This document shows, one piece after another, positions 17,156-35,300 of a DNA stretch of 52,102 nt. The DNA is from Rickettsiales bacterium. Lineage in GTDB: Bacteria; Pseudomonadota; Alphaproteobacteria; Rs-D84. The DNA lies in contig JAITQO010000016.1 in assembly GCA_031288835.1 (NCBI GenBank), positions 74,167 to 126,268 on the forward strand. Reading direction: 5' to 3'. The notes under the pieces were generated by a model that saw only the letters and a program-made list of their open reading frames with translations, was not told the DNA's origin and ran no database searches. Position numbers and translations under genes: made by a program. How positions within the stretch are numbered: the first letter of the stretch is position 1; each line of letters opens with the position of its first letter.

Positions 17156-17234
17156 TTCGCTGTTTGTGAATGTGGTTTCGCGGTGCATGTAACGTCATTT
17201 CTCCCGCTTCCTTCTTTTTTGTCGTTCCATTGCG

Positions 17235-17504
17235 CCCTTCTCCTTGTCATTCCCGCGAAGGCGGGAATAGGGTCTTTCAACCTATATGCAAAAACTTTGT
17301 TCAAATGACAACGGAATGCGCAAGCATGCAGCAAGATGCATTTGTTCCCTGCACAATGTTATTCGCTCTTCGTTATACGTTCTCTAGAAAGACGGCTTGC
17401 TTCGCTCTCGGTTTTATAGACCCTATTCCCGCCGGAGTTTACCCCCGCGAAGTCGGGGGCGGGAATGACAAGTATAAAAAGTGGTGGAAAGACAAGGAGA
17501 AGGG
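17235..17504. mobile_element. MITE-like repeat, copy A
   Basis: A perfect 14-bp terminal inverted repeat, CCCTTCTCCTTGTC (17235-17248) / GACAAGGAGAAGGG (17491-17504), encloses GTCATTCCCGCGAAGGCGGGAAT palindromes. The interior is shared with 30086-30522 and, inverted, 35075-35300. No coding capacity. Confidence 0.75.
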
Positions 17505-17640
17505 AACGGGAATTACAAACCTTTTGAGTTTGTTTTTATTACTGGCTTTCGTTGCCTATGTCCTACGGCGCCGCAACGAACTGACGCCAGCCTTATTCTT
17601 CGTCTCTTGTCCTTTTTTCCCTTGCATTCGTTGTCGACCT

Positions 17641-17650
17641 TGGATATAAT
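17641..17650 (+). promoter_or_regulatory. Extended -10 promoter (TGGATATAAT) for leader L4
   Basis: TGGATATAAT about 250 nt upstream of the 17902 start codon. Confidence 0.45.
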
Positions 17651-17656
17651 TACGCC

Positions 17657-17901
17657 GGAATCCAAAGGGATTTGGGTTCGGGACTGTTAGAAGTCCTTTG
17701 TGTAAGCGGTGCAGAAGCACTGATATCTGAATAAAATATCAACCGCTTTCTGCATTGAGATTATCCCCCGACTGTGGTCGGGGAGCCGCGGTATATAAAA
17801 TACGACAAGCCGAAAAACCGCGGAGTCATTCTTACACATGATTTCTAAACTCCCCGACCGCCAATTCCGTTGACGGTTTTTTTACGACAAAAGGGGGAAA
17901 A
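17657..17901 (+). promoter_or_regulatory. Structured 5' leader copy L4 (upstream of secreted Cys-rich protein)
   Basis: GCACTGA block. P1 TCCCCCGAC-TGTG-GTCGGGGA (17764-17784). Long P2 CCGCGG...CCGCGG (17786-17823). GATTTCTAAAC, then duplicated arm TCCCCGACC (17851-17859) overlapping terminator ACCGCCAA-TTCC-GTTGACGGT plus T7 (17857-17883). SD GGGGGA. Confidence 0.7.
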
Positions 17902-18402
17902 ATGAAAACAACCGGGGCATTCATTTTGATTTTGACATTCGCGTTAATTGCCGGTACCGCATCGGCGGAAAGGTTGTGCCAATTGGATTGGTTCGAGGCG
18001 TGGAAGAACGCGAGCGGCGCGTTGTCTAATTATAGAACGTCGAATAGCCGGGGTGACTATGATAATTCTACTAGTAACGGAGGGATGGGAACATGGGCGG
18101 TAACGTCCGACCAGGGGAGCGCGGGAGTGTATCATACGGTATCGGGGCAATCATTTTGTTCAAGCGTAGGTAATGGCACATTTACTAATTGGTCTCCTGA
18201 TTTTGATACATCTATATCATCAAACAACAAGTATTGTTGGTGTAGAATGACAAGTCCGAACCTTGGCGGGTCTTGGGCGTTCTTGGGCGACTATGGTTCG
18301 GCAGCTGATTGCGCGATCGACTGCGCGCTCCACTGCGCGAATTGTGTTCGGAGCGGCGCGGACGGCTCGTGCAACCGCTCCGCCGTCCTGGCGCTGCCGT
18401 AA
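17902..18402 (+). CDS. Secreted Cys-rich protein, CWCR family paralogue 1
   Basis: Signal peptide MKTTGAFILILTFALIAGTASA. C-terminal block YCWCRMTSPNLGGSWAFLGDYGSAADCAIDCALHCANCV is shared with the convergent neighbour. Confidence 0.75.
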   Translation: MKTTGAFILILTFALIAGTASAERLCQLDWFEAWKNASGALSNYRTSNSRGDYDNSTSNGGMGTWAVTSDQGSAGVYHTVSGQSFCSSVGNGTFTNWSPDFDTSISSNNKYCWCRMTSPNLGGSWAFLGDYGSAADCAIDCALHCANCVRSGADGSCNRSAVLALP

Positions 18403-18482: not shown

Positions 18483-18980
18483 TCAATCACTTGTTTTGTT
18501 CGCAGGCGCTTGACAAAGCTTGGCGCGGAAGTCGGAACTGAGGCTGACGTAATTCACGCAGCTGCTTGCGCAAAACTGGGCGCAATAGGGCGCCGAATCA
18601 TAATCGCCCAAGAACACCCATGCGCCCGAAAGGCCCCCGTTCTTTATCCGGCACCAGCAATGCCGGCCCTTGTCCGCCTTCGGCTTGTCTATATCCAGGT
18701 ATGTTCCGCCCGTGCCCGAACATCTCGAATTTCCACGCGCCGTCACCGGTGCTCCGGCGCGTCCCCACGGGCCGCTCAATTTCCATGTTCCTTCCGCGGC
18801 ATCCTTGCTGTAATCGTAAACGTTTCCGTTTCCGTCTCCGCCGCGCGCCGCATTCTCGATTATCGGACACGCAAAGCCTACGGCCTCTTTTCGTGTGACT
18901 TCGCCGCACGCGGCTGCCAGAAGGCATAGCGCCGCTGCGATTGCTTTCCGCATCGAAATACATTTTTCTGTTTTTTTCAT
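18483..18980 (-). CDS. Lipoprotein, CWCR family paralogue 2
   Basis: Lipobox LLAAAC (the start may be the internal MRKAIAA at 18953). HCWCRIKNGGLSGAWVFLGDYDSAPYCAQFCASSCVNYV aligns with the 17902 protein. Confidence 0.75.
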   Translation of the reverse strand: MKKTEKCISMRKAIAAALCLLAAACGEVTRKEAVGFACPIIENAARGGDGNGNVYDYSKDAAEGTWKLSGPWGRAGAPVTARGNSRCSGTGGTYLDIDKPKADKGRHCWCRIKNGGLSGAWVFLGDYDSAPYCAQFCASSCVNYVSLSSDFRAKLCQAPANKTSD

Positions 18981-19002: not shown

Positions 19003-19899
19003 TCAAATCCATGTCCACGGCTTCAGGATTTTCAGCAATCCCAGCGCCGTCCTTTTATCCGAGAACGCGTGCCCGCAGTTCGGACAGACTATGAACGGGG
19101 CGACAATCGCCTTCACTTTCTTGAAGGCCATGAACCACAGCAGCAGCGCGGCCGCCCACGCAATCAGGACCAGCCCCCACGCGACGTATCCGAAGTATCC
19201 GTTGATTGTGGACATGATGATTTGCACGGTGGATTTCGACGAACGCTCGATTTCCGCGTAAATCTTGTTGGAAACCGGCCACGTCGAAGGGCGCCACGGC
19301 GCGATTGACTTCACGTTATATTTGGCGAGCATCACGTTCGACATTCCGCCCGTCGCCTTGTCCAGCTGGCCGCGCACGGCCTGGTCTATCATCGCGTCGA
19401 CCTCGAGTTGCCCGGCCTTGACCAGTTCCTTTTCGATTTTGTCCAATTGCTTGTTTACTGCGTTCGCTGTGTCGTCGACACCGCCGGCGATATTGTCGAC
19501 CGCTTTGGTTTTTACGCCCAATTTTCCCGCGATTCCTGTCAATTTGCTTACCTTTTGCGTCTGCTTCTGAACGGATTCGAGCGGCTTCGACGCGGCCTTG
19601 ACCTTCGCGATTGCCGCGTTGACGGGCTTTTCAAGATTGATTGATTTTTTTATGCCGTCCATCAGCTTGGAATATTGCTCGGCGATTCCCTGCTGTAGGT
19701 CGAAGAACATGGACACGACGATTGATTTTTTAATCGGCTCGGAATATGTGTTTTTCACATGCAGCGGAAACCACGCCGCCAGCGCGAGCCAAACCGCCGT
19801 GAATGACAGAAACGCGATTTTTACCTTTTTGACCCACGATGATTTTTTCGCGATGTATTTTTCTCCGCCGCGTTCCGTGAACTTTGCCTCTTTCGCCAT
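19003..19899 (-). CDS. Membrane protein with coiled-coil region and C-terminal CPNCGH motif
   Basis: Start at MAKEAKF (AAGGA SD). TM segments IAFLSFTAVWLALAAWF and YVAWGLVLIAWAAALLLWFMAF. No recognised family. It lies 22 nt upstream of the lipoprotein gene. Confidence 0.6.
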   Translation of the reverse strand: MAKEAKFTERGGEKYIAKKSSWVKKVKIAFLSFTAVWLALAAWFPLHVKNTYSEPIKKSIVVSMFFDLQQGIAEQYSKLMDGIKKSINLEKPVNAAIAKVKAASKPLESVQKQTQKVSKLTGIAGKLGVKTKAVDNIAGGVDDTANAVNKQLDKIEKELVKAGQLEVDAMIDQAVRGQLDKATGGMSNVMLAKYNVKSIAPWRPSTWPVSNKIYAEIERSSKSTVQIIMSTINGYFGYVAWGLVLIAWAAALLLWFMAFKKVKAIVAPFIVCPNCGHAFSDKRTALGLLKILKPWTWI

Positions 19900-20012
19900 G
19901 TCTTTCCGTCCTTTTTTAATAATGATAACAGCAGGATTGGGGATAGTCAATAGTTCGAAATATGAAATCCGGAAACTGAAGTGGTTTTTGAAAAAATCAT
20001 TTTATGATTTTA

Positions 20013-29763: not shown

Positions 29764-29946
29764 TTTGTTTCCACCTTTTGGTTGTTTGTTATGTGTCCTA
29801 AAAAGGCGGCGGGATTTTGAAACAATCGTAGTCGAACGACCCCGCCGTATAACCGGCGCAATCCCGCCACTGCGGGATAGTATTGTCTGCGCCTATCCGT
29901 GCGCATCGACCACGAGATGTTTCAAGTCTCGGTTCCTTTCGGATAC
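29764..29946 (-). promoter_or_regulatory. Leader-like element L6 (divergent relative of L1-L5)
   Basis: Reverse strand: TATGAT box. Long-range TATCCG...CGGATA pairing. GACAATACTATCCCGC-AGTG-GCGGGAT P1 (29861-29878). Hairpin GCGCCG-GTTATA-CGGCG. GATTGTTTCAAAATCCCGCCGCC repeats the P1 5' arm and is followed by T5 (29800-29815). Confidence 0.45.
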
Positions 29947-30085: not shown

Positions 30086-30522
30086 CTTTCTCCTTGCCAT
30101 TCCGCCACTTTTTATACTTGTCATTCCCGCCTGTCTCCTTGTCATTCCCGCCCCCGCCTCCTTGTCATTCCCGCGAAGGCGGGAATAGGGTCTTTTAACC
30201 TGCACGCAAAAACTTTGTTCGAGCAATGGAAGAATGCATAAGCAATTAAAATGCGCAAGCATGCGGCAAGGTGCGCTTGTTCCCTGCACATTGTTGTCTG
30301 CTTTACTATTATTCGTTCTTCGTTATCTGTTCTATAAAATAAAAGATGGTTCGCTTCGCTCACGGTTTATAGACCCTATTCCCGCCTTCGTGGGAATGAC
30401 AAACCATTCGGGTTTGTTTTGGTTTTCGTTTCCGCTCCTTTCCCCTTGTTATTCCCGCCGGAGTTTACCCCCGCGAAGGCGGGGGCGGGAATGATAAGTG
30501 CAAAGAGTGGCGGAATGACAAA
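30086..30522. mobile_element. MITE-like repeat, copy B (composite, with triple tandem CCTTGTCATTCCCGCC)
   Basis: Shares the GTCATTCCCGCGAAGGCGGGAATAGGGTC ... GACCCTATTCCCGCC core with copy A. Terminal modules CCACTTTTTATACTTGTCATTCCCGC (left) and GCGGGAATGATAAGTGCAAAGAGTGG (right) are inverted. Three tandem about 21-nt units lie at 30117-30174. Confidence 0.7.
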
Positions 30523-35074: not shown

Positions 35075-35300
35075 AAGTTTGTTGCGGGGGCGCAGCGAAT
35101 AAGCGCGCCTTGCCGCATATTTATGCGTTTTACAATCGTTCGAACAAAGTTTTTGTGTGCAGGATTGAAAGAGACCATATTCCCGCCGGGGTTTACCCCC
35201 GCCTTTATATTTGTCATTCCCGCGAAGGCGGGAACGGGAATGACAAAGAGGATGACAAAGAGAAAAGCGCGACGAAATGACGAAGCGCAATGACAAGCGT
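35075..35300. mobile_element. MITE-like repeat, copy C (inverted orientation)
   Basis: CCTTGCCGCAT ... GAACAAAGTTTTTGTGTGCAGG ... GACCATATTCCCGCC is the reverse complement of the copy A/B interior. Followed by GTCATTCCCGCGAAGGCGGGAAC. Confidence 0.65.

Follow-up and report, generated by a model that had tools for sequence, protein, structure and literature searches.

A structured, terminator-fused RNA leader of c4/Xcc1-like architecture upstream of a small secreted protein gene in an uncultured gut alphaproteobacterium

The L4 locus

We have analysed a stretch of 52,102 nucleotides (positions 74,167 to 126,268 of contig JAITQO010000016.1, assembly GCA_031288835.1, Rickettsiales bacterium), called here the window, and in particular the region L4 (ca. 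17657-17901, ca. 245 nt; coordinates are those of the window unless a contig is named), which precedes a gene for a small secreted cysteine-rich protein of the CWCR family. The assembly consists of 789 kb in 16 contigs, is alphaproteobacterial and contains a transfer-messenger RNA of the alpha type. Its nearest public relatives are metagenome-assembled genomes (MAGs) named "Rickettsiales bacterium" and "Candidatus Enterousia", and the organisms concerned are uncultured gut Alphaproteobacteria with reduced genomes of ca. 0.7-1.1 Mb.

L4 is a genuine folded RNA leader. The minimum free energy (MFE) of 17640-17905 was -90.2 kcal/mol, against -67.2 ± 4.7 kcal/mol for dinucleotide shuffles (z = -4.92; 0 of 200 shuffles as good). 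The initial annotation had described L4 as a structured leader suitable for a covariance model, and a model (R1) built from 13 copies in the same genome, spanning the segment called anti-P1 below through the terminator, scores it at 119.6 bits and places it in one family with L1 and L3. Rfam at gathering thresholds gave no match in the L4 region. All the L4 motifs listed by the initial annotation are present at the positions claimed; its promoter, leader and CWCR gene form a monocistronic unit, the elements of which are, from 5' to 3':

17622-17650, + strand: promoter, with -35 TTGCAT (17622-27), 17-nt spacer and -10 TATAAT (17645-50); predicted start ca. 17657
17658-17679, + strand: SL1, hairpin GAATCCAAA-GGGA-TTTGGGTTC with a GNRA-type loop
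17680-17696, + strand: SL2, hairpin whose loop holds a1 TTAGAA (17687-92), the partner of J3/1 in the pairing PK2
17699-17706, + strand: b1 linker TGTGTAAG, pairing with the P3 loop (PK1)
17706-17757, + strand: SL3, long hairpin of variable length, GCGGTGCAG...CTGCATTG; -16.8 kcal/mol
17764-17772, + strand: anti-P1, C-rich segment TCCCCCGAC, of which CCCCGAC (17766-72) pairs with 17777-83
17776-17785, + strand: 5' arm of helix P1, GGTCGGGGAG, from the Rfam sRNA-Xcc1 alignment
17786-17823, + strand: P2, a CCGCGG/CCGCGG stem (17786 and 17818) with an A-rich internal loop (TATATAAAATA / GAAAAA) and a degenerate P2b hairpin
17824-17843, + strand: P3, hairpin GAGTCAT...ATGATTT with loop TCTTACAC (17830-37) and b' CTTACACA (17831-38)
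17843-17849, + strand: J3/1, junction strand with a' TTCTAA (17843-48)
17850-17859, + strand: 3' arm of P1, CTCCCCGACC; duplex with the 5' arm -21.1 kcal/mol
17857-17883, + strand: intrinsic terminator, ACCGCCAA (17857-64) / TTGACGGT (17870-77), then T7 (17877-83); ACC 17857-59 is common with P1
17891-17899, + strand: Shine-Dalgarno sequence (SD) AAGGGGGAA, 3 nt 5' of the ATG at 17902
17902-18402, + strand: CWCR-family gene, 166 aa, Sec signal peptide (…AGTASA/ERLCQ), 8 conserved cysteines

What follows about the function of the L4 family is drawn from sequence comparison. Beyond the initial annotation, the analysis adds two covarying pseudoknots (PK1 and PK2), an architecture of the c4/a1b1 type, an RCCA tail after P1 and the weakened state of the L4 terminator.

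The three-way junction core

The core of the leader (17776-17859) is a three-way junction of P1, P2 and P3. Across 34 leaders from ca. 28 genomes, 96.1% of the cells in its helices are standard pairs and both sides change in 26 of the 30 pairs. The covariation score is 0.370, compared with 0.163 for shuffled alignments (0 of 500 reached the real value) and at most 0.098 when the partners are slid along the alignment. The alignment was fitted to the model and is hence biased toward structure, but given the controls with slid partners and the range of pair types, the core helices are secure. Paralogous copies are not independent samples, a concern that is lessened by the spread of the tests over ca. 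28 genomes.

P1 is 98% paired in these leaders and its arms are conserved at 0.88-0.90 pairwise identity. The initial annotation took as main helix the pairing of TCCCCCGAC with GTCGGGGA (17777-17784) and saw in TCCCCGAC (17851-17858) a distal copy of the C-rich strand, able to pair perfectly with the same G-rich arm over 8 bp. Its central idea, a duplicated C-rich segment whose two copies compete for one G-rich arm, holds. The assignment has to be reversed, since covariation and the Rfam match given next support the distal pairing as P1, and what had been called P1 is the competing anti-P1. The distal pairing extends over 10 bp (GGTCGGGGAG 17776-85 with CTCCCCGACC 17850-59). In a permissive Rfam scan, 17777-17866 aligned to the whole sRNA-Xcc1 model (RF02221, positions 1-87) with 41.2 bits, the gathering score being 53 (E = 5.7e-6 locally, 6.6e-4 for the window), and this was the best Xcc1 match in the window. 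The GCCA tail (17860-63) directly follows the P1 3' arm, and most copies have R-C-C-A or R-C-C-T at this place.

In P2, for which the initial annotation had correctly given the CCGCGG...CCGCGG stem, two-sided changes occur across the family in all six outer pairs and in all three pairs of P2b. Its A-rich internal loop is the best-conserved unpaired part of the core (0.79 pairwise identity), while P2b is capped by interchangeable GNRA or UUCG loops in the family and is reduced to a degenerate hairpin of 2 bp in L4. The P3 stem is 96% paired; its loop varies more than any other part of the core (0.37 identity), yet is always complementary to the b1 of its own copy. Insertions had been proposed to be tolerated in peripheral elements only, and we found indels confined to the SL3 apex, P2b and loops.

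The 5' domain and its long-range pairings

The 5' domain, noted before as expanded in L4, has a conserved order of SL1, SL2, linker and SL3 with its own promoter upstream. A CCTTGCA-N17-TATAAT box ends 6-8 nt 5' of SL1 in paralogous copies and relatives, and its position implies a transcription start at ca. 17657, which is the left border that had been drawn for L4. A consensus scan did not call the L4 promoter because its -35 element is weak. Over 36 leaders, 92% of the SL1 cells are paired and both sides change in six of nine pairs; in the same set the SL2 stem is 80% paired and supported by covariation. The base of SL3 is conserved and its apex differs among copies. The boundary of SL1 and SL2 (GGGTTCGGGA, 17675-17684) resembles the P1 5' arm (GGTCGGGGA) and amounts to a third G-rich copy, which may take part in the switch; in the nested MFE of the terminated RNA, its GGGA is bound to UCCC in the P1 3' arm.

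Two further pairings connect this domain with the junction. In PK1 the linker TGTGTAAG (17699-706) is complementary to CTTACACA in the P3 loop (17831-38), with a duplex energy of -9.2 kcal/mol, and in PK2 the SL2 loop TTAGAA (17687-92) is complementary to TTCTAA of J3/1 (17843-48). Since MAFFT misaligned SL3, anti-P1 and the pseudoknot strands of full-length leaders, the core was treated with the covariance-model alignment, and the long-range pairs were assessed by permutation. In 23 copies of the same genome, PK1 strands matched their cognate partners over 7.5 nt on average and non-cognate ones over 5.6 (0 of 20000 permutations as high). Among 30 leaders of other genomes, the values were 7.67 and 4.77 for PK1 and 6.77 and 5.18 for PK2, again with 0 of 20000 permutations in both cases. 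Every examined copy has its own sequences at both sites, complementary within the copy, and the a1-b1 spacing is constant at 10-12 nt. The leaders of two CWCR homologues in other genomes (L011 and L013) differ from L4 at the PK1 and PK2 sites and are fully compensated. By these copy-specific complementarities, PK1 and PK2 dock the 5' domain onto the three-way junction.

The nested MFE of the terminated RNA presents a different picture, a continuous 17-bp helix in which the 3' half of SL2 and the linker pair with the P3 loop through J3/1. Covariation is seen in the SL2 and P3 stems but not in the middle part of this helix, and we therefore rejected the 17-bp helix as native fold and read it as a possible OFF conformer.

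Anti-P1, P1 and the terminator

The proximal hairpin, for which a bulge had been thought necessary, consists of 7 perfect bp (CCCCGAC 17766-72 with GTCGGGG 17777-83; -13.8 kcal/mol). Hairpin folding against composition-matched shuffles showed that 46 of 52 copies have an anti-P1 hairpin of 6 bp or longer, with a mean energy of -12.0 kcal/mol and a mean z of -2.2. Anti-P1 tracks the P1 arm through 17 different arm sequences, e.g., CTCCAAC with GGTTGGAG, CTCCTGC with GGCAGGAG, ATCCCGCC with GGCGGGAT and TCCCTGACT with AGTCGGGGA.

In a subtype of the leaders, the 5' domain contains a GC hairpin with a run of 8-9 T behind it, immediately 5' of an anti-P1 of reduced length (CCCCG, 5 bp). The subtype comprises G000 C10:103179-103422 and C11:18230-18473, together with L015, L017, L018, L023-L025, L027, L029 and L030. 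The hairpin and T-run resemble the end terminator of isrK in phage modules, and these leaders may be tandem attenuators.

On the 3' side, P1 and terminator overlap, the terminator stem beginning with the last 3-4 bases of the P1 3' arm. The fusion of a terminator with T7 to the distal arm stands as first described; what had been missed is that the L4 stem has a C17861/A17873 mismatch and is weak (-6.8 kcal/mol, compared with -12 to -15 kcal/mol in sibling copies). Because of this mismatch the consensus scanner did not call the L4 terminator, and, given the G-to-A change that weakened it, L4 is probably leakier than its siblings. The terminator stem covaries across the family and a U-tract follows it in ca. 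26 of 34 leaders. The overlap with P1 covaries three ways, as GGT/ACC/GGT (L4-type), GGC/GCC/GGC (L3, C2:126833) and TGT/ACA/TGT (L024:364). The common bases adjoin the U-tract, the place next to which the function of intrinsic terminators is in general most sensitive. In L011 (G003:C35, 1600-1730), the leader of a CWCR homologue in the same genus, the terminator hairpin is kept and the T-tract is lost (GGTCATTA); an insert of ca. 100 nt with an inverted repeat lies between this leader and its gene.

Anti-P1, P1 and terminator helices are mutually exclusive. For the RNA of terminated length, the unconstrained MFE (-83.8 kcal/mol) contains anti-P1 and the terminator, and the fold with P1 closed reaches -76.7 kcal/mol with the pseudoknots unscored (PK1 alone is worth ca. 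-9). As the pseudoknots would add to the P1 fold, the two states are plausibly close in energy.

Family size, distribution and cargo

A search with nhmmer using L4 found 23 related stretches in the same genome, 12-14 of them with a complete 5' domain, and R1 raised the number to 30. The first or last bases of many contigs lie within a leader or a CWCR paralogue (G000 C12:1-137, C4:1-139, C1:216-318, C9:240-342, C13:19740-20101, C5:25818-26125 and C7:8902-9130); the family therefore fragments the assembly, and more than 30 copies must really exist. R1 also matched in 44 of 61 related genomes, spread over most genera of its family and, within the order, over two other families, with at least 58 and at least 50 copies in two genomes of ca. 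1 Mb. A gene for Hfq was not detectable in any of the 61 genomes.

In the window, the direct R1 search gave four copies at E < 0.001 (L4, L1, L3 and 5667-5771 on the minus strand), and the whole-genome search added a weak fifth (29800-29883, minus strand, 22.6 bits). Of the two minus-strand copies, one lies 5' of a gene for a 137-aa secreted Cys-rich protein and the other 5' of one for a 109-aa protein.

The leaders are consistently found before genes. In 26 of the 30 copies of this genome a same-strand open reading frame (ORF) with an SD follows, its start usually 16-60 nt after the hairpin, and the products are mostly signal-peptide or envelope proteins (glycosyltransferase, YadA anchor, PAP2). 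The CWCR protein belongs to no Pfam family, so the cargo gives no functional clue. Paralogues with the pattern KLCQLDW...CWCRMTSPNLG (C12:9154, C11:42645, C13:19804, C9:240, C5:25818 and C1:216) each have a leader. The initial annotation had made its proposal depend on conservation of the element upstream of orthologues; close CWCR homologues in two other MAGs have the leader directly upstream in 4 of 4 cases, and it is also present at L011 and L013. More distant homologues mostly have no detectable leader or are located at contig starts. The leader subtype does not track the gene family, as the closest CWCR paralogue in the same genome (60% identity) has a leader of the short-P2 subtype and L4-type leaders also stand 5' of genes for a glycosyltransferase, a YadA-anchor protein and others. 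Promoter and leader together hence behave as a module.

The SD, suggested before to pair with the C-rich segment, has two possible partners in L4 by energy, anti-P1 (-13.2 kcal/mol) and the P1 3' arm (-10.3 kcal/mol). A copy-specific pairing was not borne out, the advantage of cognate arms over 25 copies being marginal (-7.9 against -7.2 kcal/mol; p ca. 0.05).

Around the unit, a convergent gene for a CWCR-family lipoprotein paralogue (18483-18980, minus strand, 165 aa) has no leader of its own and lies 22 nt downstream of 19003-19950 (minus strand), which encodes a 315-aa membrane protein with a CPNCGH motif; the two are probably co-transcribed. Between smpB and the L4 promoter there is a repeated intergenic element of ca. 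270 nt (17232-17500) with nested palindromes (GTCATTCCCGCGAAGGCGGGAAT; TATTCCCGCC...CCCCCGCGAAG.CGGGGGCGGGAAT), further copies of which are found at 30150-30520 and 35167-35234; the copies are 85-100% identical. An ORF at 17170-17649 that overlaps this repeat is probably spurious.

A proposed transcription attenuator and its alternatives

There is a reading of these helices that we regard as rather probable, namely that L4 is a three-tier transcription attenuator, with anti-P1 in the role of anti-antiterminator, docked P1 in that of antiterminator, and the terminator as third tier. The upstream anti-P1 would capture the P1 5' arm once this arm is transcribed. If anti-P1 persisted, the P1 3' arm would be left free, its ACC would complete the terminator stem and transcription would stop at T7, 19 nt before the start codon (OFF). 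If instead the P1 3' arm displaced anti-P1 and closed the docked junction, the three base pairs adjoining the U-tract would be withheld from the terminator and read-through would result (ON). The candidate inputs are a metabolite, a protein, the binding of RNase P or folding kinetics. No second promoter fits between the L4 terminator and the SD, so that read-through is needed for any expression of the gene; that termination is conditional, and which of the states is the ON state, we infer from the arrangement of the helices.

Several observations weigh against such an attenuator. The overlap of P1 and terminator is short (3-4 nt) and sits at the fraying end of P1, so that the terminator could form regardless and be merely leaky. 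Neither a ligand pocket nor a protein partner was identified, and the Rfam scans gave no match to an aptamer family. About 8 of 34 leaders, L011 among them, have no good U-tract, for which reason the hairpin may have another role. In L4 itself the terminator is weak and P2b degenerate, and this copy may be relaxing. Besides, closure of P1 in the full-length nested MFE goes along with pairing between anti-P1 and the SD, which would oppose the ON state at the level of translation.

Some of these points would suit a constitutive structured leader without any switch. Its compact fold would serve to stabilise or insulate the mRNA, and the hairpin and T-run would terminate a fixed part of the transcripts, keeping basal expression low or yielding a small RNA as by-product. 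The short overlap, the U-tracts missing in some copies, the weak L4 terminator and the lack of an identified sensor all agree with such a leader. Yet a static structure needs no alternative pairings, whereas anti-P1 is a dedicated competitor maintained by selection, covarying with P1 in 17 arm classes, and the overlap of P1 and terminator covaries three ways, which makes this explanation rather unlikely. The capacity of the SD to pair with either C-rich arm raises another alternative, with translational control as the main output; here anti-P1 or the P1 3' arm would mask the SD, and the P1 5' arm would be an SD mimic titrating both. The pairing energies in L4, the full-length MFE just mentioned and a few copies in which an unusual SD matches an unusual arm (e.g., AATCC with GGATT in C2:125612) speak for it. 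However, an advantage as marginal as that of the cognate arms is expected for any pyrimidine-rich arm facing a purine-rich SD, and some copies have an AGGAG SD with non-matching arms (e.g., C6:34570). We consider this masking distinctly improbable as the main output.

The remaining alternative starts from the likeness of L4 to the C4 antisense RNA of phages, treated in the next section. L4 would be a self-addressed riboregulator of c4 type, cut by RNase P at G17776 thanks to a tRNA-like G:C pair plus GCCA; the freed junction RNA of ca. 100 nt would act in trans through a'/b' on a1/b1 of its own locus only, so that each gene is autoregulated individually. In a variant, RNase P bound at the GCCA tail would block the terminator. 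The topology is that of the APSE-1 c4 module, followed by ACCGCCAAT, an R-C-C-A/T tail follows P1 in most copies, and the precursor of the C4 RNA of phages P1 and P7 is reportedly an RNase P substrate (Hartmann et al., 1995, as cited in PMC11143913). The b' loop, moreover, is the most variable core part although paired, in the face of well-conserved P1 arms, which would fit selection for addresses that do not cross-react. That variability could also be neutral drift of otherwise unconstrained helices, and the conservation of GCCAA is equally explained by the terminator stem. Neither Rfam C4 nor c4-a1b1 matches the leaders, R1 does not find the APSE C4 and there is no a2/b2 copy near the ribosome binding site (RBS). 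This riboregulator seems to us unlikely. Extended to the family, the proposal is that each of the 30 to at least 50 leaders per genome is an orthogonal, self-addressed device that uses RNase P at P1 plus GCCA, either releasing a junction RNA with its own address or, by occupation of RCCA, preventing the terminator from forming. We hold this extension to be quite doubtful; if it were true, a phage immunity RNA would have been turned into genome-wide, per-gene control of surface and secreted proteins in bacteria without Hfq.

Whatever its mode of action, one RNA design precedes a sizeable fraction of the secreted, cysteine-rich and envelope genes in these gut Alphaproteobacteria. If the attenuator or any other switch is at work, the leader family would be the main visible regulatory layer for their cell surface. 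It links sRNA-Xcc1 and phage c4 a1/b1, two poorly understood RNA families, to a putative cis-regulatory role in the chromosome. Every helix has natural compensatory variants, which makes the design directly testable, and the address helices, being specific to each copy, are interesting as RNA parts with natural orthogonality.

Comparison with known systems

Three-hairpin attenuators and terminator-type riboswitch platforms have in common with L4 the three exclusive helices (anti-P1, P1 and terminator in our case) and a U-tract just before the SD. Of what characterises attenuators, we found in L4 a terminator hairpin with U-tract between promoter and SD, and covarying exclusive pairings. Unlike the classical attenuators and riboswitches, L4 has no leader peptide, tRNA specifier or recognised aptamer, the part of antiterminator is played by a helix that closes a large pseudoknotted domain, and the overlap with the terminator is a mere 3-4 nt.

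C4 antisense RNA with its a1/b1 sites belongs to the immI-type module of phages P1, P7 and APSE (Weinberg et al., 2010, PMC2864571). As a yardstick we scanned APSE-1, where Rfam c4-a1b1, isrK and C4 appear in a row upstream of the anti-repressor gene. The C4 mechanism is reportedly the one worked out by Citron and Schuster in 1990 and by Biere and co-workers in 1992. The order of elements in L4 is that of the APSE-1 module: promoter, first hairpin, second hairpin with a1 in its loop, b1 linker and third hairpin, followed by the three-way junction (b' in the loop of the second hairpin, a' in the junction strand), the tail and the gene. In APSE-1, a1 is UUGAGAC in the second-hairpin loop and b1 is the linker GCUAACAAGG; the c4-type antisense layout is present in L4 as TTAGAA/TTCTAA (a1/a') and TGTGTAAG/CTTACACA (b1/b'), the a and b sequences being locus-specific in both systems. 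The APSE-1 tail ACCGCCAAU is identical in L4, where the 9-nt string ACCGCCAAT, shared with the APSE-1 C4 RNA, lies at the P1 3' end and tail. The tRNA-like features of L4, a G:C first pair and the GCCA tail, involve bases that also form the terminator stem.

The differences from c4 are also clear. The closing stem has 10 bp in L4 compared with ca. 17, an anti-P1 hairpin and an overlapping intrinsic terminator are added, and the phage immunity context is not found in the L4 family. APSE-1 has a second a2/b2 copy over the RBS and the alphaproteobacterial leaders have none. We rejected c4-like repression through downstream a2/b2 sites because in the 130 nt downstream the cognate and non-cognate values (4.91/4.69 and 5.29/5.13) do not differ significantly. 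Membership in C4 (RF01695), c4-a1b1 (RF03163) or isrK (RF01394) was likewise discarded, there being no match at E <=10 on 17500-17950 or at E <=1 on 20 family loci in a scan that finds all three models in APSE-1. Dependence on Hfq, by analogy with isrK, was dismissed for the absence of Hfq from the 61 genomes.

The closest relative by model score is sRNA-Xcc1, first found as an 88-nt small RNA (sRNA) of Xanthomonas campestris (PMC2996969) and encoded in integron cassettes upstream of symE (bioRxiv 10.1101/2025.06.18.660453). It has the same closing helix, P2 with A-rich internal loop and small capped hairpin, P3, junction strand and RCC tail, and in Xanthomonas, too, it stands 5' of a gene that runs in the same direction. 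Its gathering score is not reached by any member of the family (the best, L011, has 51.5 bits, and the copies of the L4 genome 22-46 bits). While sRNA-Xcc1 is a free-standing RNA of ca. 88 nt in an integron or phage context, the L4 core is part of a leader of ca. 245 nt with its own promoter, a 5' domain, anti-P1 and a fused terminator, 19 nt before a chromosomal gene, and its family resides in chromosomes of gut Alphaproteobacteria, where genomes of ca. 1 Mb each have 30 to more than 50 copies before secreted and envelope genes. To judge from these scores and layouts, the L4-family leaders adjoin Xcc1 and have the c4 architecture in common with the phage RNAs, with sequence homology to c4 below detection. 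L4 is a c4/Xcc1-type RNA recruited as a multi-copy, terminator-fused leader of the chromosome.

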